A stretch of 64,000 nt of DNA. Source: an uncultured Caldilineales bacterium (GTDB taxonomy: Bacteria; Chloroflexota; Anaerolineae; JAAEKA01). The position numbers and the translations under genes are program-made. The notes beneath the pieces were generated by a model that was not told where the DNA came from, searched no databases, and saw nothing but the letters and a program-made list of their open reading frames with translations. Of this stretch, positions 50,527 through 60,840 are shown in pieces. The DNA is taken from the NCBI GenBank assembly GCA_937907455.1, contig CALESQ010000082.1, forward strand, positions 10,898 through 74,897, read 5' to 3'. Each line of letters starts with the position of its first letter. Within the stretch, counting starts at the first letter, position 1.

Positions 50527-50650
50527 TGTGGGCGCAGCCGCGCGCCAGCTCGTTTTTGTTCTTGACACCCACACCCAGCGATTTTATACTGCACGCTCCG
50601 GCTTCTGGAAGCCGACGCCAGCATTTTTTTCTCAAAAGGACGATGAACGC

Positions 50651-51214
50651 ATGAACAGCCATCAGAACTTGTCACCGGAACAGCGCGACGCATTGCTCGC
50701 CACGCTGCAAGCCCGTTTCGAGAAGAATAAACAACGCCATGCGGGTCTGGCGTGGAGCGATGTCCAGGCCCGGCTCGCCGCTGATGCAGCAAAGCTGTGG
50801 TCGCTCAGTGAAATGGAACGAACCGGCGGTGAGCCGGATGTGATCGGACAGGACGATCAGACGGGGGCGTATCTGTTTTGCGACTGCGCGGCGGAAAGCC
50901 CCAAGGGTCGCCGCAGCCTGTGTTACGACCGCGCCGCGCTCGATGCCAGGAAAGAATACAAGCCGGAAGATAGCGCGGTGGATATGGCCGCGGCGATGGG
51001 GATTGAGCTGTTGACCGAAGCGCACTATCGCGCCCTGCAAACGCTGGGCAAGTTTGATCTGAAGACGTCGAGCTGGGTCGCCACCCCCGCGGCGATTCGG
51101 GAACTCGGTGGTGCGGTTTTCTGTGACCGCCGCTACGACACAGTTTTCCTCTACCACAACGGCGCCGAGTCGTACTATGCCGCGCGCGGCTTCCGCGGCT
51201 TGCTGCGCGTCTGA
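50651..51214 (+). CDS. DUF4256 domain protein
   Basis: 187 aa from MNSHQNLSPEQRDALLATLQARFEKNKQRH; AAGGA RBS. Confidence 0.55.
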   Translation: MNSHQNLSPEQRDALLATLQARFEKNKQRHAGLAWSDVQARLAADAAKLWSLSEMERTGGEPDVIGQDDQTGAYLFCDCAAESPKGRRSLCYDRAALDARKEYKPEDSAVDMAAAMGIELLTEAHYRALQTLGKFDLKTSSWVATPAAIRELGGAVFCDRRYDTVFLYHNGAESYYAARGFRGLLRV

Positions 51215-51240
51215 CATTGCACACCACCCATTAACCGAAC

Positions 51241-52080
51241 ATGCGCAGCGATCACCCTCTCTTCAAGCAATACCCGGTGGACAGCCAGGTGCTTATCGCA
51301 GGCGAACATTGTCCCAGCCCTTATCACATCTACGATGGTTCGATTCTGTTCATCGGTGGCACGGTGGCTGGTACGACAGCGCGCCAGCTTCTGGCTAACG
51401 AGCGGCTCGCCCCCATCATGGATCAAAATGATCGGGCACTGGCCGCGCTTTGGGTCTGCGATTTCACCGAGGCTAATCTGGGGCCGCATCACGAACTACA
51501 AATCTCCCTGTTCGCCTCCGTTGATCCCGTGCCACCGGTGCGCGCCCATCCGTTTGCCATCCATCGGACGCTGGTCAACGACCGCGCAACGCGCATGGTG
51601 TGTCACGGGCTTTGGAACAATACCGCCAAAGTGGTGGGCTACAACACTCAACATCTCGGCTTGAACGCGCGTCGGGGCCACAGCGACATCACGCGGGGCC
51701 GCGGGCGCTGGCAGTTCCGGGTGAGCGACGACAACGGGCTGGTAGCAACCGGCGATCTGGCGCTGCCGGCGCGGGCTGCGCCGGTGCAACTGGCAGCGAT
51801 GATGCAGCATATCGGCGTCAAGGGCCTGCTTCGCTCCCTGCGCACGCCCTACGTCCACGTACCTGTGGTCAATACGCGCAACCGCTTTGCCGACGATAAC
51901 CGGGTGGCGCATACCTATACCCGAAACGATAACCAGGTCATTCGACGGTTCACCGCGCAGGATCAGCTTTCAATTCACTACCCGCAAGCGGCGGTGCTGG
52001 ATTTCGCGCCGGACTTTGTCCAGCACAACGAGGGCGTGCGCTTTGTCTATCTGCGACCAGAGCCGGAAGGCCCGGCTTGA
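51241..52080 (+). CDS. hypothetical protein (possibly acetoacetate decarboxylase-like fold)
   Basis: 279-aa ORF with coding-like composition; no firm motif. Confidence 0.35.
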   Translation: MRSDHPLFKQYPVDSQVLIAGEHCPSPYHIYDGSILFIGGTVAGTTARQLLANERLAPIMDQNDRALAALWVCDFTEANLGPHHELQISLFASVDPVPPVRAHPFAIHRTLVNDRATRMVCHGLWNNTAKVVGYNTQHLGLNARRGHSDITRGRGRWQFRVSDDNGLVATGDLALPARAAPVQLAAMMQHIGVKGLLRSLRTPYVHVPVVNTRNRFADDNRVAHTYTRNDNQVIRRFTAQDQLSIHYPQAAVLDFAPDFVQHNEGVRFVYLRPEPEGPA

Positions 52081-52344: not shown

Positions 52345-52606
52345 TTATCGAAACTTGCCAAAAGCGCCCGCTTATGACACAATGCGTCATGACGTTAATC
52401 TGGTAACGTTCCGCTTTTTTTGGGTAGGTGATTGTCATGCAACCGTGGGCCTCGACGATGATAGCCCAGTCTGCTTGCGCGGCGCACAGGCGCTTTTTTT
52501 CGCCTGCACTGATTGATCGCGCCCTTCCCCTGCCTGCTTGCTCCCTTTCCGCTTCCCATTATTTTCCCCCCGTAAACCTGATACTGTGCGCAAGGAGGCC
52601 ACAACG

Positions 52607-54880
52607 ATGAGCGAACTCAAGGAATTATATGCCGTTGGCGAACAGCCACCGGTAGGCCATGTACCGCCTCAGATGTATGCCTGGATGGTGCGCCCGGAAC
52701 GCTTTGGCGAGCCGACTAAGGCCTGGCAGGTCGAAGTGATTGACACGCCGGAGCCTGCCGACGACGAAGTCCTCGTGTATGTGATGGCCGCGGGCGTCAA
52801 CTACAACAATGTTTGGGCTGGCCTGGGCATTCCGGTGGACGTCATCGGCGCGCGCAACAAGGCCGGCGAGCCGGAGCGCTTCCACATCGGCGGCAGCGAC
52901 GCCAGCGGCATTGTTTACAAAGTTGGCAAGGATGTCACCACCCACAAGGTCGGCGACGAGGTGGTCATCCACTGCGGCACCTGGAGCCGCGACGATCCCT
53001 GGGTCAAGGCGGGCGAAGACCCGATGTACAGCCCAACCTTCCGTATTTGGGGCTATGAAACCAACTGGGGCAGCTTTGCGCAGTTCACCAGGGTGCAGGC
53101 GCACCAGTGCCTGCCGCGCCCCCAGCACCTCACCTGGGAGCAATCCGCAGCCTATATGCTGGTAGGCGCGACCGCCTACCGCATGTTATACGGCTGGGCC
53201 GAACACGCCCTGCGCAAGGATGACATCGTGCTGATCTGGGGCGGCGCGGGTGGTCTCGGCTCGATGGCGATTCAGATCGTCAAGGCCGCAGGCGGCAAGG
53301 CCATCGCCGTGGTCAGCGAAGATGACAAGTTCGACTACTGCAAGAACCTCGGCGCAGTAGGCTGCATCAACCGCAAGAATTTCAACCATTGGGGCATGTT
53401 GCCACACTGGAAAGACACCGTCGGCTACAACGAATGGCTAAAGGGCGTGCGCGGCTTCGGCAAGGCTATTTGGGACGTGCTGGGCGAGCGCAAAAGCCCG
53501 CGTATCGTCTTTGAACACCCCGGCGAGACCACCATCCCCACCTCGATCTTTGTCTGCGACACCGGCGGTACGGTGGTGATCTGTGCCGGCACCACCGGCT
53601 ACAACGCCACGGTAGACCTGCGCTACCTGTGGATGCGCCAGAAACGGCTGCAAGGCTCACATTTTGCCAACGACGAGCAATCCAAGGGCTTCAACGATCT
53701 GGTGCTGGCTGGCAAGGCCGATCCGTGCATGTCGCGTGCCTTCACCTGGGACGAATTGCCCTTCTCGCATCAACTGATGTACGAGAACAAGCATCCCTTC
53801 GGCAATATGTCTATTCTCATCGGCGCGCCCGATTTTGGCCTGGGCATTCACAAACCCGAACCTGCGGGCGCGGTACATGTGGAAGCACCCGCCGAGCCGC
53901 GTGCCGCCGAGAACTTCTATCGTGCGCCGCTGCATCCTGTAGATGAAGCCAAACCGGAAACCGCCGTGGTTGAAGACACCCGCCTGGTGCGCGAGATGAT
54001 GCACTACGGCGTGATTGCCTGTTCGCTGGGCACGCCGATAGACGAAGTAGCCCAACGTATGAGCGACTATCATATACATGCTGTTGTGGTTACCGATGCC
54101 GAAGGCTATGCTGCGGGCATTGTATCACAAACCGATGTAGTGTTGGCGCGGCAAGGGCGCGCCAGCCAGGAACTGGCCGCTCTGACTGCCGGCGACGTGA
54201 TGAGTCGCCATGTGGTGAGCTGTACACCCGACACCACCATCTCTGAGGCCATCACCCTGATGACCCGCAACCATATTCACCGGCTGGTTGTGGCCGACAA
54301 GCGTGGTGCCAAACCGTGGCCGGTAGGAGTATTGAGCATGACCGATATTATCACTTATGGCATGCAAGCACCGCACAGCGGCGCACCTGCCATGTCGCTG
54401 CCGCCCTCACTGATGGCAAGCGACATCTACGAGCCTATGACCCTTGAACCCAGCCTGGAAGACCTGAGCGCGCTGCACGAAGCCAACACCGTGAGCGATA
54501 TCATGCACATCGGTGTGGTGAGCTGCCCCCGCTCCGCCTCGGTGATGGATGCCGCACGCAAAATGCTCGATCAGGGCATCCATGCCGTGGTGGTGGTAGC
54601 CGATGATGGTCACGCGGTGGGCGTGGTGTCGCAAACCGATGTAGTGCTGGCACGCCAAGGACGCACCGTAGAGCAGGCAGCAGCGCTTAGCGTGGGCGAT
54701 ATCATGACTCCCACACTGGTAAGCTGCACCCGCGACCGTGCCCTTTCCGAAGCCATCACTCTGATGACGCGCAACCGGGTACACCGCCTGGTAGTAGTGG
54801 AAGATCAGAACGGCAAGCTGATGCCGGTGGGCATTCTCAGCATGACCGACGTGATCCGCCAGTTCTTCAGCAAAAACTAA
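52607..54880 (+). CDS. ccr: crotonyl-CoA carboxylase/reductase fused to four C-terminal CBS domains
   Basis: N-terminal 440 aa match Ccr along the whole length ([122 protein letters not shown]). C-terminal 330 aa are two Bateman modules (four CBS repeats). AAGGAGG RBS 8 nt before the ATG at 52607. Confidence 0.8.
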
Positions 54881-54897: not shown

Positions 54898-56067
54898 ATG
54901 ACAGTACTTACCGGTGAATACGAAACCGTACGACGCGAAGCGCGCAAATTCGCTGAAAAAGAAGTTGCGCCCATAGCCCATGACCTGTACAACGAAGGCA
55001 AAGAAATCCCGATGGAGATCATCAAGAAGATGGCCAACCTGGGCTACTTCGCGATGGCGATCCCGGAGGAATACGGCGGTCTGGGCATGGACACGCTGAC
55101 CATCACACTGGTCACCGAAGAATTGAGCCGCGTTTGGCTGTCGGTCGGTTCGGTGATGACCCGCATGTTGATCGCGGGCGGGCTGATCCTGAACGGCGGC
55201 ACGGAAGAGCAAAAGGAACGCTGGCTGCCCGGCATTGCCACGGGCGATGTGCTGCCCGCCGCAGCCTTCACCGAACCAAACGCCGGGTCGGACACCGCAG
55301 GTATGCAGTTGCGCGCGGTGAAGCAGGGCAACAAATACATTCTGAACGGCGCCAAAACCTGGATCACCTTCGCCAACCGCGCCAACCTGATGACCGTGCT
55401 GGCCCGCACCGATCCTGATGCAAGTAAACGGCACAAGGGCTTGTCCATGATCGCCGTGGAGAAGGCCCCCGGCAACGACTTTATGCCGCCGCACCTCACC
55501 GGCGCGCCCATTCCTACCATCGGCTACTACGGCATGAAATCGTTCAGCCTGAACTTCGAAGATTTTGAAGTGCCCGCGGAGAACGTCATCGGTGGCGTGG
55601 AGGGCAAAGGCTTCTACCAGCTCATGGGCGTGTACGAGACCGCCCGCATCCAGACCGCGGCCCGCGCCGTGGGTGTGGCGCAGGGCGCGTACGAGGCCGC
55701 GCTGCAATACGCGCAGGAGCGTGAGCAGTTTGGCCGCCCGCTGTCCGATTTCCAGGTGATCCAGCACAAGATCGCACACATGGCGACCGACATCGAGGCC
55801 GCGCGCCAGCTCACCTATTACGCCGCGCAGAAGAAAGATTCGGGCCAGCGCTCGGATTTGGAAGCGGGCATGGCTAAGCTGTTCGCCGCGGACATGGTGG
55901 AGAAAGTCACCAGCGACGCCTTGCAGATCTTCGGCGGCTACGGCTACGCCATGGAGTATCCGGCGCACCGCTTCTGGCGTGATGGCCGCATCTTCAAGAT
56001 ATTTGAAGGCACCAGCGAAATCCAGGCCGAAGTCGTCGCCAAGCGGCTTATCCCTGAGCGTAAGTAG
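54898..56067 (+). CDS. acyl-CoA dehydrogenase (short form; candidate methylsuccinyl-CoA or short/branched-chain acyl-CoA dehydrogenase)
   Basis: 389 aa; ACAD signatures (TEPNAGSD, catalytic region YGGYGYAMEYPAHRFWRDGRIFKIFEGTSEIQ). Confidence 0.85.
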   Translation: MTVLTGEYETVRREARKFAEKEVAPIAHDLYNEGKEIPMEIIKKMANLGYFAMAIPEEYGGLGMDTLTITLVTEELSRVWLSVGSVMTRMLIAGGLILNGGTEEQKERWLPGIATGDVLPAAAFTEPNAGSDTAGMQLRAVKQGNKYILNGAKTWITFANRANLMTVLARTDPDASKRHKGLSMIAVEKAPGNDFMPPHLTGAPIPTIGYYGMKSFSLNFEDFEVPAENVIGGVEGKGFYQLMGVYETARIQTAARAVGVAQGAYEAALQYAQEREQFGRPLSDFQVIQHKIAHMATDIEAARQLTYYAAQKKDSGQRSDLEAGMAKLFAADMVEKVTSDALQIFGGYGYAMEYPAHRFWRDGRIFKIFEGTSEIQAEVVAKRLIPERK

Positions 56068-56146: not shown

Positions 56147-57598
56147 ATGAACCTAACCTTCACCCCCGAAAGCATCGCCGGTGTAGTCCAAAACATTGAA
56201 GCTGCCAACGAAGGCTTCCGCGCGCTCTATCCCGGCGACGTGACCACACGCCAACCGGTACACACCGTCTACGGCGGCGCGCATTTGTTCAAATCTGACA
56301 CGGCCAGCAAGCTGGGCGGCATCGCCCTGCGCAACATGGACGCCTACGCGCCCAACTTCGTTGCCTTCGCCAAGGCGCTGGGCCTGCCCGGCGCGGCTGC
56401 GCTGCCCGACACCACCGCGGATGTCGAGCATCTGGCGCAGATCATCGCCAAAGACCCGGAAGCGGCCAGCTTCAGCCACGAACCGGCCTGGATGGCCTAC
56501 ACCGTCTACCAGCGCGTGCGCGAAAAGCTGCAACGCGAGCCGGTGGAAGATTACCGCGTCGACTTTGAAGACGGCTACGGCAACCGCCCGGACGAGGAAG
56601 AAGACATACACGCGGTCAACGTCGGCAAGGAACTGGCCGCAGGCATCGAAAACGGCAAGCTGCCGCCCTTCATCGGCATCCGCATCAAGCCGTTCACGCT
56701 GGAAAGCTACCGGCGGGCCGTGCGCACCCTCGACCTGTGCATTACCACGCTGGCGCAGGCCAGCGGCGGCAAAGTGCCCGCCAACTTCGTCATCACCCTG
56801 CCCAAAGTGACGATGCCAGAGCAGGTCACCGCGCTGGCCGATCTGGTGGATCAACTGGAAGCGAAAAACGGCATCCAGCCGGGTGCAATCGGCCTCGACC
56901 TGATGATCGAAACACCGCAGGCGATCATTGACGACACCGGTGCAAACACGGTCAGCCTGCTCGTGCGGGCGGGCCGCGGGCGCGTGCGCTATTGCGCGTA
57001 TGGAACCTACGACTACACCGCGCTGGTCAACATCACGGCGCACTATCAGACGCACACCCACCCCGCGGCGGATTTTGCCCGCCACGTCATGCAGGTGAGC
57101 CTGGCCGGTACGGGCGTCAGCATCAGCGACGGCGCCACCACCATTATGCCCATTGGCCCGCACCGCGCCACCAAGGAAACGCCCTTGACCGCGCAGCAGG
57201 AAGCGGAAAATATGGCTGTGGTGCAGGCGGCTTGGAAGCTGCACTACAACAACGTGCGCCACTCGCTGCGCCACGCCTTCTACCAGGGCTGGGACCTGAA
57301 CCCGGCACAGTTGCCGGTGCGCTACGCCGCCGTCTACACCTTCTTTCTGGAAAGCCTGGATGATGCCAGCAAGCGGCTCAACCGCTTTGTGGATGCGGCC
57401 GCGCAAGCTACGCTCAGCGGCAACATGTTCGACGACGCAGCTACCGGCCAGGGCTTGCTGAACTTCTACCTGCGCGGCATTGCCTGCGGTGCGATCACCG
57501 AGGAAGAAGCCACCTCCACCGGCGTCACGCTGGAAGAGTTGCGCGGCCGCTCGTTCGTGAAGATCGTGCAGAACCGGGCGTATAAAAAGACGCTGTAA
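56147..57598 (+). CDS. HpcH/HpaI aldolase / citrate-lyase-beta (CitE) superfamily protein, malyl-CoA lyase-like, unusually long (483 aa)
   Basis: DFEDGYG (equivalent to DLEDsV), IGIRIKP, LDLMIETPQAI and AYGTYDYTALVNI match CitE/malyl-CoA lyase catalytic motifs; GGAG RBS. Confidence 0.5.
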   Translation: MNLTFTPESIAGVVQNIEAANEGFRALYPGDVTTRQPVHTVYGGAHLFKSDTASKLGGIALRNMDAYAPNFVAFAKALGLPGAAALPDTTADVEHLAQIIAKDPEAASFSHEPAWMAYTVYQRVREKLQREPVEDYRVDFEDGYGNRPDEEEDIHAVNVGKELAAGIENGKLPPFIGIRIKPFTLESYRRAVRTLDLCITTLAQASGGKVPANFVITLPKVTMPEQVTALADLVDQLEAKNGIQPGAIGLDLMIETPQAIIDDTGANTVSLLVRAGRGRVRYCAYGTYDYTALVNITAHYQTHTHPAADFARHVMQVSLAGTGVSISDGATTIMPIGPHRATKETPLTAQQEAENMAVVQAAWKLHYNNVRHSLRHAFYQGWDLNPAQLPVRYAAVYTFFLESLDDASKRLNRFVDAAAQATLSGNMFDDAATGQGLLNFYLRGIACGAITEEEATSTGVTLEELRGRSFVKIVQNRAYKKTL

Positions 57599-57698: not shown

Positions 57699-59396
57699 AT
57701 GACAGACCCCCATTTCCACCCCCTTGCCGATGCGCTGCACGCCTGGGAAACCGGCGATCTGGCAAAGTCCACCGAGCGCGCGCCGGAACGCGCGGAAACC
57801 GAGGCGTTTCCGCGGCTGGCAACACCACTCGATGCCGGGCCGCAGCCGCCCGCTGCGGCTGATCAGCAATGGTATCTGGACAAGCTGAGCTTTCCCGGCC
57901 AGTATCCCTTCACGCGCGGGGTGCAGCCCACCATGTACCGTTCCCGCTTCTGGACGATGCGCCAGTATGCGGGCTATGGCACGGCGGCCGAGGCCAACGA
58001 GCGCTTCAAATACCTGCTGGGCCAGGGTCAAACCGGCCTTAGCATCGCCTTCGACCTGGCGACACAGATCGGCTACGACAGCGACGACCCGCTGGCTGCG
58101 GGCGAGGTGGGGCAGGCAGGCGTGGCGATTGACTCGCTGGCTGACATGGAGGCGCTACTCGACGGCATTCCGCTGGACAAGGTCAGCATCAGCATGACCA
58201 TCAACGCGCCGGCCAGCGTGCTGTTGGCGATGGTGATCGCCGCGGGCGAGGCGCGCGGCGTGCCTGCGGCCAAGCTCACCGGCACGATCCAGAACGACAT
58301 CCTGAAGGAATACGTCGCGCGCGGCACCTACATCTTCCCGCCCGGCCCCAGCGTGCGCCTGGCCGCGGATACCATCGCATTCTGCGCGCGCGAAGTGCCG
58401 CGCTGGAACGCGATCAGTGTCAGCGGCTACCACATCCGCGACGCGGGCAGCACCGCCGCGCAGGAGATGGGCTTTGCCATCGCCAATGCGCTGGCCTATC
58501 TGGACGCAGTGCTGGCGCGCGGCGTAGCGATTGATGACTTCGCGGGCCGCATCTCCTGGATTTTCAACACGCAAAACAACTTCTTCGAGGAAGTCGCCAA
58601 GTACCGCGCCCTGCGCCGCCTGTGGGCCACGCTGCTCAAGGAACAGTACGGCGCGCAAAAAGCCTCCAGCATGACCCTGCGCACGCACGTTCAGACCGGT
58701 GGCGCGACCCTCACCGCGCAGCAGCCGCTGAACAACATTGCCCGCGCCGGCTTTCAGGCTCTCGCCAGCGTGCTGGGCGGCATCCAAAGCATGGCTTTGA
58801 GCTGCTACGACGAGGCGTTGGCGCTGCCCACCGAGGAAGCACAGGCCACCGCGCTGCGCACGCAGCAGATCATCGCCCACGAAATCGGCGTGTCCGAGGT
58901 AATTGATCCGCTGGCAGGGTCGTATTACGTCGAAAGCCTCACGGACCAGCTCGAAGCCGAAGCGCTGGCCCTGATCAACAAGGTGCAGGAGCTGGGCGGC
59001 TCGGTGCAAGCCATCGAAAGCGGCTGGATGCAGCAGCAGATCGCGGATTCGTCCTGGCGGATGCAAAAGGCTGTCGAGGCGGGCGAGCAGATCATCGTCG
59101 GCGTCAACGCCTACCAGTCGCCCGGCGAGGAACGGCCCGTGGGCATCTTCCGCCCCGACCCCGAAACCTACCGCACCCAGCACGCCCGCCTGGAGCAGCT
59201 CAGGGCGACGCGCGACCAGGCCACGGTGCAAGCTGCGCTCAGCCGGTTGCGCGCCGTAGCCCAGGCCCCCGCTGGCCCCGACAGCAACCTGATGCCGCCC
59301 ATTCTCGACGCGGTGCGCGCCTACGCCACGCTGGGCGAAATCTGCGGCGTGCTGCGCCAGGAATGGGGCGAATACGAACCGCCGACTGTTATTTAA
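57699..59396 (+). CDS. methylmalonyl-CoA mutase family catalytic (large) subunit with no B12-binding domain (IcmA/HcmA/Ecm-like)
   Basis: 565 aa; FPGQYPFTRG, MYRSRFWTMRQYAGYG, GQTGLSIAFD, TIQNDILKEY and RTHVQT match the mutase TIM-barrel domain; no Rossmann B12 domain. Confidence 0.85.
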   Translation: MTDPHFHPLADALHAWETGDLAKSTERAPERAETEAFPRLATPLDAGPQPPAAADQQWYLDKLSFPGQYPFTRGVQPTMYRSRFWTMRQYAGYGTAAEANERFKYLLGQGQTGLSIAFDLATQIGYDSDDPLAAGEVGQAGVAIDSLADMEALLDGIPLDKVSISMTINAPASVLLAMVIAAGEARGVPAAKLTGTIQNDILKEYVARGTYIFPPGPSVRLAADTIAFCAREVPRWNAISVSGYHIRDAGSTAAQEMGFAIANALAYLDAVLARGVAIDDFAGRISWIFNTQNNFFEEVAKYRALRRLWATLLKEQYGAQKASSMTLRTHVQTGGATLTAQQPLNNIARAGFQALASVLGGIQSMALSCYDEALALPTEEAQATALRTQQIIAHEIGVSEVIDPLAGSYYVESLTDQLEAEALALINKVQELGGSVQAIESGWMQQQIADSSWRMQKAVEAGEQIIVGVNAYQSPGEERPVGIFRPDPETYRTQHARLEQLRATRDQATVQAALSRLRAVAQAPAGPDSNLMPPILDAVRAYATLGEICGVLRQEWGEYEPPTVI

Positions 59397-59790
59397 GTAG
59401 ACAAGTACACAAGTAGACAGGTAGACAAGTAGACAGGTAGACAAGTACATAAGTAGACAGGTAGACAAGTAGGCAAGTAGACAAGTACATAAGTAGACAG
59501 GTAGACAAGTACATAAGTAGACAGGTAGACAAGTAGACAGGTAGACAAGTACATAGAGGACCATTTTGTGTACTCATCCCCGTGTACTTGTGTACTCATT
59601 CCCGTGTACTTGTGTACTCACTCCTTGTGTACTCATCCCTTGTGTACTTGTGTACTCATCCCTTGTGTACTCATCCCTGTGTACTTGTGTACTCATCCCT
59701 TGTGTACTCATCCCCTGTGTACTTGTGTACTCATCCCTTGTGTACTTGTGTACTCATCCCTGTGTACTCTCCTCAGGAGACCCCTATGCT
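59397..59790. repeat. two adjacent octamer-type tandem repeat arrays filling the mutase-hydratase intergenic region (GTAGACAa/GTACAtAa, then GTGTACTt/GTGTACTCATCCCt)
   Basis: Seen directly at 59398-59555 and 59565-59775; both contain the palindromic core GTAC. Confidence 0.8.
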
Positions 59791-60247
59791 CGACCAAAGT
59801 TACATTGGCAAGAAGCTGCCGACGATCCGCTATCAGGTGGATGCCAGCAAGATCCGTGAGCTGGCCGGTGCGCTGGGCGACGATAACCCGCTGTTCCATG
59901 ACAAAGCCGCCGCGCAGGCCGCGGGCTATGATGACATTGTAGCACCGCTGACTTTTCCCACGCTGTTCCGCTTCTGGGGTGGCACGGCCGCGGGCGCAGA
60001 AACGCGCAGCCTGCTGCAACAGATGGGCGCGAACGTGCTGCGCATCCTGCACGGCGAAGAAGAATACGAATACTTCAGCCCCTTGCAGCCGGGTGATGAC
60101 ATCAGCGGCGAACTGGAAATCCTCAGCATTGATCGCAAAGAGGGCAGTTCCGGCGCGATGGATATGGTCAAAACGCAGGCTACTTACCGCGATCAAAACG
60201 GCGATGTGAAGGCGATCACCCGCGCCACGATGGTGGTGCGGTGGTAA
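59786..60247 (+). CDS. MaoC-like dehydratase, N-terminal-type (non-catalytic hot-dog) subunit
   Basis: 153 aa from MLDQSYIGKK; AGGAGA RBS; a hot-dog fold partner gene follows. Confidence 0.7.
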   Translation: MLDQSYIGKKLPTIRYQVDASKIRELAGALGDDNPLFHDKAAAQAAGYDDIVAPLTFPTLFRFWGGTAAGAETRSLLQQMGANVLRILHGEEEYEYFSPLQPGDDISGELEILSIDRKEGSSGAMDMVKTQATYRDQNGDVKAITRATMVVRW

Positions 60248-60313
60248 CTCGTAACTCGTAACTCGTAACTCGTAACTCGTAACTCGTAACTCGTAACTCG
60301 TAACTCGTAACTC
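60244..60313 (+). repeat. (GTAACTC)x10 perfect heptanucleotide tandem repeat; its first unit overlaps the TAA stop of the preceding gene
   Basis: Seen directly; related CGTNTTA x4 at 60352-60378 and gtaactcgtaacc at 57603-57615. Confidence 0.9.
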
Positions 60314-60426
60314 GAAGCATACCATCCTTGCAGTCTGTGATGTCAAATCCGTGTTACGCATTACGTATTACGTGTTACAGAACGCTGATAGGTCCGCCTG
60401 CCATTGGCATGGAACGAGGATAATTC

Positions 60427-60840
60427 ATGACCCCCAACTACGAAACCATCCAGGTTGGCGACGCGCTGCCCAGCCTGAGCAAGCCCGCGATCACGGAAGT
60501 GCAACTGGTGCGCTACAGTGGTGCGAGCGGCGACTTTAACCCCATCCACACCGTGCATCAGGCGGGCGTGGACAGCGGCAACGGCGGCGTGATTACGCAC
60601 GGCATGGTGATTATGGGGTTCGTCGGCCAAATGATCACCAATTGGGTGCGCCCTGACCAGGTGCGCAAGTTCGGTGTGCGCTTCACCGGCATCAGTCGGC
60701 CCGGCGACGAGATCACCGTCACGGGCAAGGTCATCGAGAAGTTCATGGTGAACGGCGAGCCGCGCGTGCGCTGCGAAGTAGAAGCCGCGGATCAGGCTGG
60801 TCAGCGCAAGGTGAAAGGCGAGTTCGTCGCCGCGCTGTAA
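60427..60840 (+). CDS. MaoC family (R)-specific enoyl-CoA hydratase, catalytic hot-dog subunit
   Basis: SGASGDFNPIHTVHQAG...ITHGM hydratase motif (D...H). Confidence 0.75.
   Translation: MTPNYETIQVGDALPSLSKPAITEVQLVRYSGASGDFNPIHTVHQAGVDSGNGGVITHGMVIMGFVGQMITNWVRPDQVRKFGVRFTGISRPGDEITVTGKVIEKFMVNGEPRVRCEVEAADQAGQRKVKGEFVAAL

Follow-up and report, generated by a model that had tools for sequence, protein, structure and literature searches.

The gene and its product

The window analysed here, a 64,000-nucleotide (nt) stretch from an uncultured Caldilineales bacterium of the Chloroflexota (assembly GCA_937907455.1, contig CALESQ010000082.1, positions 10,898 to 74,897 of the forward strand), carries at 52607..54880 a gene in which a crotonyl-CoA carboxylase/reductase (Ccr) is fused to four cystathionine beta-synthase (CBS) domains. 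Coordinates are those of the window, and features lie on the plus strand unless stated otherwise. The gene, referred to as ccr-CBS, consists of 757 codons plus a stop and occupies most of a single long open reading frame (ORF; 52538..54880), in which the ATG at 52607 gives a product of 757 amino acids (aa). A strong Shine-Dalgarno sequence, AAGGAGG (52592..52598), can be read 8 nt 5′ of this ATG, and the GC content of the gene (about 0.58–0.61) is even along its length. The coordinates given for the fusion ORF in the original prediction, which was made from the sequence alone, match exactly. Pfam assigned ADH_N (aa 52–172), ADH_zinc_N (aa 216–363) and four CBS domains to the product. The protein is composed of a complete enoyl-CoA carboxylase/reductase (ECR) core, two flexible linkers and two Bateman modules, each formed by two CBS domains.

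The catalytic core

Residues 1–415 make up an entire ECR, and its CO2-binding pocket is intact. The core (aa 18–415, 52658..53851) has a medium-chain dehydrogenase/reductase fold made up of ADH_N and ADH_zinc_N, as found by TIGR01751, Pfam and Foldseek. TIGR01751, the NCBIfam equivalog model for crotonyl-CoA carboxylase/reductase (EC 1.3.1.85), matched aa 18–415 with 549 bits over model positions 3–397 of 398, the curated equivalog cutoff being 378.55 bits. In the AlphaFold model, the predicted local distance difference test (pLDDT) score of the core was mostly 85–98, with aa 305–351 below 50. The Foldseek template modelling scores (TM-scores, for the core normalised to the target) were 0.90 to 9KVA, the ECR of M. 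metallidurans, and 0.85–0.89 to AntE (4Y0K) and the M. extorquens Ccr (4GI2). Sequence identity to the closest solved chains is 53–58%, with 9KVA at 58%.

The CO2 pocket of the K. setae enzyme (KsCcr) has been shown experimentally to be formed by Asn81, Phe170, Glu171 and His365, and a Tyr in place of Phe170 preserves carboxylation (PMC6628652). The K. setae sequence was taken from its PDB alignment and aligned pairwise to the window protein. In this mapping, the CO2 anchor Asn81 corresponds to Asn67 (codon 52805..52807), Phe170-Glu171 (water shield and ordered-water ligand) to Tyr150-Glu151 (53054..53059), His365 to His352 (53660..53662), and the second-shell Ser119 to Ser97. Asn67, Ser97, Tyr150, Glu151 and His352 are all invariant in a family alignment of 81 sequences. 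E151, N157 and N218 couple the dimers in fast tetrameric ECRs, whose speed depends on this inter-subunit coupling (PMC9413435); these residues of KsCcr are not conserved in the window protein, which has D129, E137 and A198 instead. The nearest solved homologue, 9KVA, is reported as a dimer rather than the canonical tetramer (PMC12632816).

The identity of the enzyme as a crotonyl-CoA carboxylase/reductase is thus borne out, as the TIGR01751 equivalog match, the CO2-pocket residues, the fold and the ethylmalonyl-CoA operon context agree. The predicted ECR should catalyse the NADPH-dependent reductive carboxylation of crotonyl-CoA to (2S)-ethylmalonyl-CoA. It shares the fold, the CO2-pocket residues and membership of the TIGR01751 family with the primary-metabolism Ccrs (4GI2, 9KVA and AntE 4Y0K; K. 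setae 6OWE is more distant), and also their role as the first committed enzyme of an ethylmalonyl-CoA operon. It differs from KsCcr in the Tyr at the Phe170 position and in the inter-dimer coupling residues, and from the solved ECRs as a group in length: the latter have 404–448 residues, stop where the linker of the window protein starts, and carry no regulatory domain.

The CBS tail

The core is followed by linker 1 (aa 416–457, 53852..53977), Bateman module 1 (CBS1 and CBS2; aa 458–589, 53978..54373), linker 2 (aa 590–625, 54374..54481) and Bateman module 2 (CBS3 and CBS4; aa 626–757, 54482..54877). Module 1 was delimited by the Pfam CBS matches and by segmentation with a module hidden Markov model (HMM), and module 2, a tandem duplicate of module 1, by the module HMM and the module alignment. 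Pfam PF00571 recognised the four CBS stretches with 172.9 bits (E 1.6e-51; gathering cutoff 24 bits). The repeats from which the tail had been recognised, GVIACS (467), HVVSCT (534), GVVSCP (635) and TLVSCT (702), mark the first beta-strand of each CBS domain in turn.

Each of the four CBS domains keeps the ribose-binding motif G-h-h-S-x-T-D, and a His-Arg dyad is present in CBS2 and CBS4. The motifs of module 1 include GIVSQTD (504–510), His558-Arg559 and GVLSMTD (574–580), and those of module 2 GVVSQTD (672–678), His726-Arg727 and GILSMTD (742–748). In an alignment of 81 tails (19 four-CBS and 62 two-CBS sequences), the G, S, T and D of the ribose motif were invariant or at least 87% conserved and both His-Arg dyads were invariant or nearly so; the module 2 motifs were invariant in the 19 four-CBS sequences. 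The description of the tail as a well-formed tetra-CBS unit therefore holds, and the ribose-binding Asp and the Ser/Thr residues, whose absence would have spoken against it, are found in all four domains. These motifs align to the 'IHRLPV' and 'VHRLVVVDE...GIVSLSDIL' segments of AMPK-gamma-1, which from established structural work make the phosphate and ribose contacts in the nucleotide sites of AMPK.

Both linkers are predicted to be disordered. The pLDDT fell below 50 at aa 435–455 in linker 1 and to about 30–36 in linker 2, the disordered stretches being aa 435–455 and 588–624, and the linkers are only 22–38% identical across the family (22–37% for linker 1, 38% for linker 2). Each nevertheless contains a short conserved island, Y-R-A-P in linker 1 (aa 438–441, 53918–53929), of which Pro441 is kept in 76 of the 81 sequences, and D-I-Y-E-P in linker 2 (aa 606–610, 54422–54436), kept in 18–19 of the 19 four-CBS sequences.

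The CBS domains were predicted with good confidence (pLDDT 82–93 for module 1 and 76–90 for module 2), and the secondary structure assigned by DSSP to the predicted structure repeats the beta-alpha-beta-beta-alpha CBS pattern four times at pLDDT 75–93. Modelling of the full-length protein and of the tail alone thus gave confident domains; the mutual packing of the modules and their docking on the enzyme were not predicted with confidence, the predicted TM-score (pTM) being 0.57 for the full-length protein and 0.42 for the tail alone. The best fold matches of the tail were the single-chain four-CBS proteins SSO3205 with AMP, MJ1225, AMPK-gamma and SNF4, at TM-scores of about 0.5, and several of the four-CBS matches were solved with bound adenine nucleotides. 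Archaeal ribosome-hibernation CBS proteins (Sri/Dri) were also among the fold and sequence matches and ranked top by sequence.

Integrity of the fusion

A frameshift or stop codon between the domains was sought in independent assemblies, and none was found at the junction. The identical 757-aa protein is encoded on contigs of two other projects, ENA ERZ795037 and JGI 3300014349. In GCA_040275545.1, the DNA matches over 2.5 kb at 99% identity, gapless and free of stops, with four residues differing. Intact orthologues of 750–758 aa with two Bateman modules are present in the genomes of seven GTDB species from Anaerolineae, Caldilineales and other Chloroflexota. The junction is therefore in frame, as had been claimed, in three independent assemblies and seven species genomes.

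Both Bateman modules are under purifying selection. The ratio of nonsynonymous to synonymous substitution rates (dN/dS) is about 0.1 in the modules (0.09–0.16 in module 1 and 0.08–0.18 in module 2), compared with 0.04–0.09 in the ECR part and 0.21–0.40 in linker 2, figures which are approximate as dS is near saturation.

Two records appeared to speak for a split or broken gene. The NCBI record P0271 annotates just a 294-aa 'CBS domain-containing protein' at the same locus; however, the DNA of that locus is 99% identical to the window and the full ORF is intact in GCA_040275545.1, so the 294-aa protein is a gene-calling artefact and not the product of a split gene. Contig L022 does split the fusion gene, but the break lies inside the ECR domain and not at the junction, and the 31 gap openings together with a neighbouring gene that is truncated as well point to long-read indel error rather than biology.

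Stand-alone tetra-CBS proteins were considered as a separate class and rejected: the three candidates (P0271, P0122 and P0022) are attributable to a gene-calling artefact or an error-prone contig, the contig of P0122 itself not having been inspected. In the annotation of GCA_040275545.1 (locus L021, 4001–4885), the last 294 residues alone are called as a product and the ECR part is uncalled despite the intact ORF. Architecture searches would miss the fusion because of this annotation error.

In a comparison with loci L003, L004 and L006, no coding stretch of the syntenic region diverges more than the CBS-coding third of the gene (53900–54880). Its nucleotide identity is 0.70–0.82, as against 0.82–0.96 across the genes nearby and most of the ECR part, and its dS is 1.0–1.5, as against 0.35–0.70, with dN/dS still near 0.1. 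Exchange between the duplicated modules, by recombination or gene conversion, may possibly account for this divergence, as may a relaxation of codon constraint.

Distribution of the family and origin of the four-CBS form

The family was compiled from the best 120 homologues, clustered at 90% identity, and at least 120 clusters share the architecture. CBS domains were present in all of these 120: 98 have one Bateman module (median length 591 aa) and 22 have two. The named source taxa include Chloroflexi/Caldilineales, Deltaproteobacteria/Myxococcales/Polyangiaceae, Gammaproteobacteria and SAR324, and the fusion members are listed in the database under the plain name 'crotonyl-CoA carboxylase/reductase'. 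The architecture had been called unusual, which was an overstatement, since a large and widespread ECR+CBS family is already in the public databases. The architecture search returned many ECR+CBS fusions, in favour of the fusion itself; the four-CBS form is a lineage-specific duplication of a commoner two-CBS form.

At 50% identity the entire fusion clade collapses into one representative, P0121, so that no family count can be taken there; the nearest CBS-less ECRs in the search of 50% representatives are 54–58% identical. Against CBS-less ECR outgroups, the fusion clade was monophyletic in 30 of 30 bootstraps. Ccr-CBS is a compact family of single origin, with the four-CBS form as its Chloroflexota variant. 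The two-CBS members (about 591 aa; P0121, P0108, P0119 and the SAR324 protein MBF0288185.1) are 63–72% identical to the window protein, belong to the same fusion clade, and share the linker Pro, the Bateman site residues and the pathway context; they differ in carrying a single Bateman module instead of two. The one-module members include Myxococcota-like, Gammaproteobacteria and SAR324 proteins.

Modules 1 and 2 of the window protein align without gaps over 122 aa at 55% identity (E 1e-47), and the linker motifs YRAP and DIYEP are repeated, one before each module. In the module tree, the first modules (22 of 22) group together in a single clade that spans both four-CBS subclades, and first and second modules share an ancestor nested among the single modules. 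This topology points to one tandem duplication of a 'linker + Bateman' unit and argues for the four-CBS form having arisen by a single such event, in which the linker motif was copied together with the module. The neighbour-joining tree of the ECR domain recovered four-CBS monophyly in 0 of 30 bootstraps; its backbone branches are too short (0.003–0.025) to confirm it, and this tree being uninformative, the single duplication is read from the module tree. P0052 (591 aa) is 79% identical to the four-CBS protein P0015 and ends after module 1, and Ccr versions with 0, 2 and 4 CBS domains are all found in Chloroflexota genomes. The number of Bateman modules is evolutionarily labile.

Operon context

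Downstream of ccr-CBS lies a gene for a 389-aa acyl-CoA dehydrogenase (54898..56067; Pfam acyl-CoA dehydrogenase domains), whose best PDB matches are the methylsuccinyl-CoA dehydrogenases (Mcd) 6ES9 (E 7e-123, chain residues 167–550) and 8CIW. It does not have the N-terminal extension of about 165 residues that is present in solved Mcd, whereas the two-CBS operons L018 and L019, from other phyla, carry a 566–569-aa form. A 483-aa DUF6986 protein (56147..57598; PF22484, E 4.5e-176) follows in the position of beta-methylmalyl-CoA lyase. It matched haloarchaeal malyl-CoA lyase weakly (E 1.4e-4), and its homologue in L018 also matches HpcH_HpaI; a comparison with PDB sequences gave no meaningful match, and no paper on DUF6986 was found in the literature searched. 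This protein is a candidate for an uncharacterised lyase of the pathway. The next gene encodes a 565-aa substrate-binding subunit of an acyl-CoA mutase, a candidate ethylmalonyl-CoA mutase (57699..59396; TIGR00641 at 700 bits). A split pair of MaoC/HadA-HadB-like hydratases (59786–60247 and 60427–60840; Pfam FAS1_DH_region and MaoC_dehydratas, NCBIfam HadA/HadB-like matches) is a candidate mesaconyl-CoA hydratase, for which L018 has a fused enzyme (MC_hydratase).

The order ccrCBS, mcd-like gene, DUF6986 gene, mutase gene and MaoC pair is conserved in 8 Chloroflexota genomes, indicating that the gene encodes the Ccr of an ethylmalonyl-CoA-type pathway, that is, of primary metabolism; in this route for the assimilation of acetate through acetyl-CoA, Ccr is the CO2-fixing entry step. 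The two-CBS operons are canonical for the ethylmalonyl-CoA pathway and contain, in order, a lyase-like gene, a 569-aa Mcd, mesaconyl-CoA hydratase, an ethylmalonyl-CoA mutase (Ecm) with a B12 domain, MeaB and Ccr-CBS. Thus, long Mcd, fused mesaconyl-CoA hydratase (Mch), Ecm with its B12 domain and MeaB on their side stand against short Mcd, split hydratase and a mutase without the B12 domain in the Chloroflexota operon.

Possible function of the tail

We consider it probable, by a modest margin of confidence, that through the tail an adenosine ligand exerts allosteric control over the committed carboxylation step in a primary-metabolism Ccr. The tail would bind a ligand with a free ribose, most probably AMP, ADP or ATP and less probably S-adenosylmethionine (SAM), NAD(H) or a dinucleotide, and binding would tune the committed CO2-fixing step allosterically. 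The conserved Asp of CBS domains normally binds the free 2′/3′-OH groups of ribose, and for this reason CoA and NADP(H) are judged unlikely ligands. The original prediction had gone further and proposed that the sensor couples carboxylation flux to energy charge; as stated this is not supported, although it is a reasonable conjecture from the AMPK-gamma-like site residues, with the ligand, the sign of the effect and regulation itself all presumed.

Several known systems suggest how such control might work. In cystathionine beta-synthase, a flexible linker joins a complete enzyme to a CBS pair at the C-terminus, which binds an adenosine derivative. Cystathionine beta-synthase shares this enzyme-linker-C-terminal Bateman logic with the window protein, although it has an unrelated pyridoxal phosphate/heme fold, SAM as its ligand and one Bateman module, and autoinhibition is demonstrated there and only inferred here. 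By analogy, the tail may act as a tethered autoinhibitory or activating element that docks on the mobile catalytic domains. Alternatively, it may alter the coupling between subunits. Precedents for this are IMPDH and CBS-pyrophosphatase, in which adenine or guanine nucleotides bound to the Bateman module adjust both activity and quaternary state. The CBS regions of IMPDH were among the weak matches of the tail; in these enzymes the Bateman module is inserted within the catalytic domain rather than placed at the C-terminus, and the catalytic folds differ.

AMPK-gamma, SNF4, MJ1225 and SSO3205 resemble the tail in that a single chain holds four CBS domains in tandem, and the H-R dyads and S-x-T/S-D motifs align. 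These, however, are stand-alone subunits with contiguous modules packed into a disc, and they are only 15–21% identical to the tail. The window protein has its modules attached to an enzyme, with a disordered spacer of 36–50 residues between them, and disc packing was predicted without confidence (pTM 0.42, TM-score about 0.5). Given the long spacer and the covalent fusion, the tail is best regarded as a functional analogue of AMPK-gamma-like sensors and not as a member of the group. In the two-CBS relatives, the Bateman module would pair between subunits, and the duplication in Chloroflexota may have made the Bateman pair intramolecular, as in AMPK-gamma.

A more specific scheme can be drawn from this, in which a large natural clade of ECRs is gated directly by adenylate status through a tethered Bateman sensor, the Chloroflexota duplication converted a Bateman dimer formed between subunits to an intramolecular, AMPK-gamma-like four-site sensor, and YRAP and DIYEP serve as docking elements by which the mobile catalytic domains are clamped or released. 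We put this forward tentatively and regard it as doubtful in its full form. If it were true, no reductive carboxylase under allosteric control would have preceded this one, and the tail would offer a portable regulatory part for synthetic CO2-fixation cycles.

A number of observations weigh against adenosine-ligand control of a pathway Ccr. CBS domains also sense Mg2+, ionic strength, cyclic di-AMP (c-di-AMP) or SAM, or just oligomerise, and given such varied inputs the conserved site residues do not name the ligand. The disordered inter-module linker of 36–50 residues is unlike the compact AMPK-gamma and MJ1225, the similarity of the tail to solved four-CBS discs reaches a TM-score of only about 0.5 with linkers at pLDDT below 50, and the AlphaFold models of the full-length protein and of the tail alone contain no confident tail-enzyme or Bateman-Bateman contact. 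CBS-less Ccr homologues of 414–415 aa that are 64–69% identical exist in Chloroflexota (L015 and L016), so the tail is dispensable for catalysis. Finally, the 565-aa mutase lacks a B12 domain and no MeaB or epimerase was identified nearby, which leaves the pathway assignment incomplete here; L018 and L019, by contrast, have a 670-aa Ecm and MeaB. When a B12 subunit or MeaB was sought in the gaps of the L004 operon, toxin-antitoxin, PIN and SH3 genes were all that was found.

A competing explanation is that the tail senses a signal other than energy charge, such as SAM, NAD(H), c-di-AMP, diadenosine polyphosphates, Mg2+ or ionic strength. SAM-bound MJ0100, NADH-bound SNF4 (3TE5) and c-di-AMP-regulated OpuCA are among the sequence or fold matches, and the top sequence matches are the Sri/Dri ribosome-hibernation proteins rather than metabolic adenylate sensors. 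We nonetheless think this unlikely, since the His-Arg dyads and the Ser/Thr/Asp motif fit the AMPK-gamma phosphate and ribose sites best, the conserved ribose-binding Asp would argue against ligands phosphorylated at the 2′ or 3′ position, such as NADP(H) and CoA, and no acidic cluster typical of Mg2+-sensing CBS domains was seen (judged by eye only). Were it correct, the ethylmalonyl-CoA pathway would be tied to the redox state, the osmotic state or a stress alarmone.

Somewhat more improbable still is that the Bateman modules serve chiefly for oligomerisation or scaffolding. They would then keep ECR dimers associated, or govern the balance between dimer and tetramer, without responding to a small molecule. 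Bateman modules commonly dimerise, with CBS pairs arranged head-to-head or head-to-tail. The 58% identical 9KVA is reported as a dimer, the speed of ECRs is tied to inter-subunit coupling (PMC9413435), and the KsCcr residues that couple the dimers are those not conserved in the window protein, all of which would suit such a role. It is hard to see, however, why a purely structural element should preserve, in every one of the four CBS domains and throughout 81 sequences, just those residues that contact ribose and phosphate; moreover, a disordered linker of about 40 residues makes a poor rigid scaffold, and the CBS-less relatives function without a tail. That the fusion is an artefact of a chimeric contig or a frameshift error, or a decaying relic without function, is refuted by the independent assemblies and by purifying selection (ten intact orthologues, dN/dS about 0.1, at least 120 clusters with the CBS-fused architecture), and we give it practically no weight.

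Novelty and significance

Searches of the literature returned no relevant paper on an ECR or Ccr with CBS or Bateman domains, and no solved ECR with a CBS domain was found among the PDB fold matches. Nor was allosteric regulation of any ECR found in the literature searched, in which papers centre on catalysis and subunit coupling. The novelty of the ECR + CBS architecture is upheld to this extent, that no describing paper or solved structure was found. Many enzymes are regulated by Bateman modules, the principle is not new, and the sequences were already public under an ordinary name; it is the pairing of an ECR with such a tail that is undescribed and yet widespread.

Among CO2-fixing enzymes, ECRs are the fastest known; both the ethylmalonyl-CoA pathway and synthetic CO2-fixation cycles rely on them as workhorses, and to our knowledge they have so far been treated as unregulated catalysts. 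A sensor maintained by selection on the committed step in several phyla would imply post-translational control of the flux through acetyl-CoA assimilation and CO2 co-fixation. Because versions with 0, 2 and 4 CBS domains occur naturally in one phylum, a ready comparative set is available for the study of module function.

Flanking genes and repeats

Directly on the 5′ side of ccr-CBS (50528–52080, +) lie a gene for a DUF4256 protein and then one for a 279-aa protein without a Pfam or NCBIfam match. A TetR regulator gene and a divergent P450 gene are found upstream of the DUF4256 gene. L001 and L003 have this set in synteny; the TetR, DUF4256 and 279-aa genes are also retained in L021, where the position of the P450 gene falls outside the locus examined. 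We speculate that the TetR protein upstream of ccr-CBS is a CcrR-like regulator.

Short tandem repeats are densely packed in the intergenic spacers around the MaoC genes, and the GC content falls to 0.53 there. About 20 copies of the 8-nt unit AAGTAGAC occupy 59395–59551 and a 15-nt unit, CTTGTGTACTCATCC, is repeated over 59566–59769, and 10 perfect copies of GTAACTC lie at 60244–60314. A minus-strand ORF at 59708–60361 with 'YELRVTS' repeats is spurious, being a by-product of the tandem repeats.

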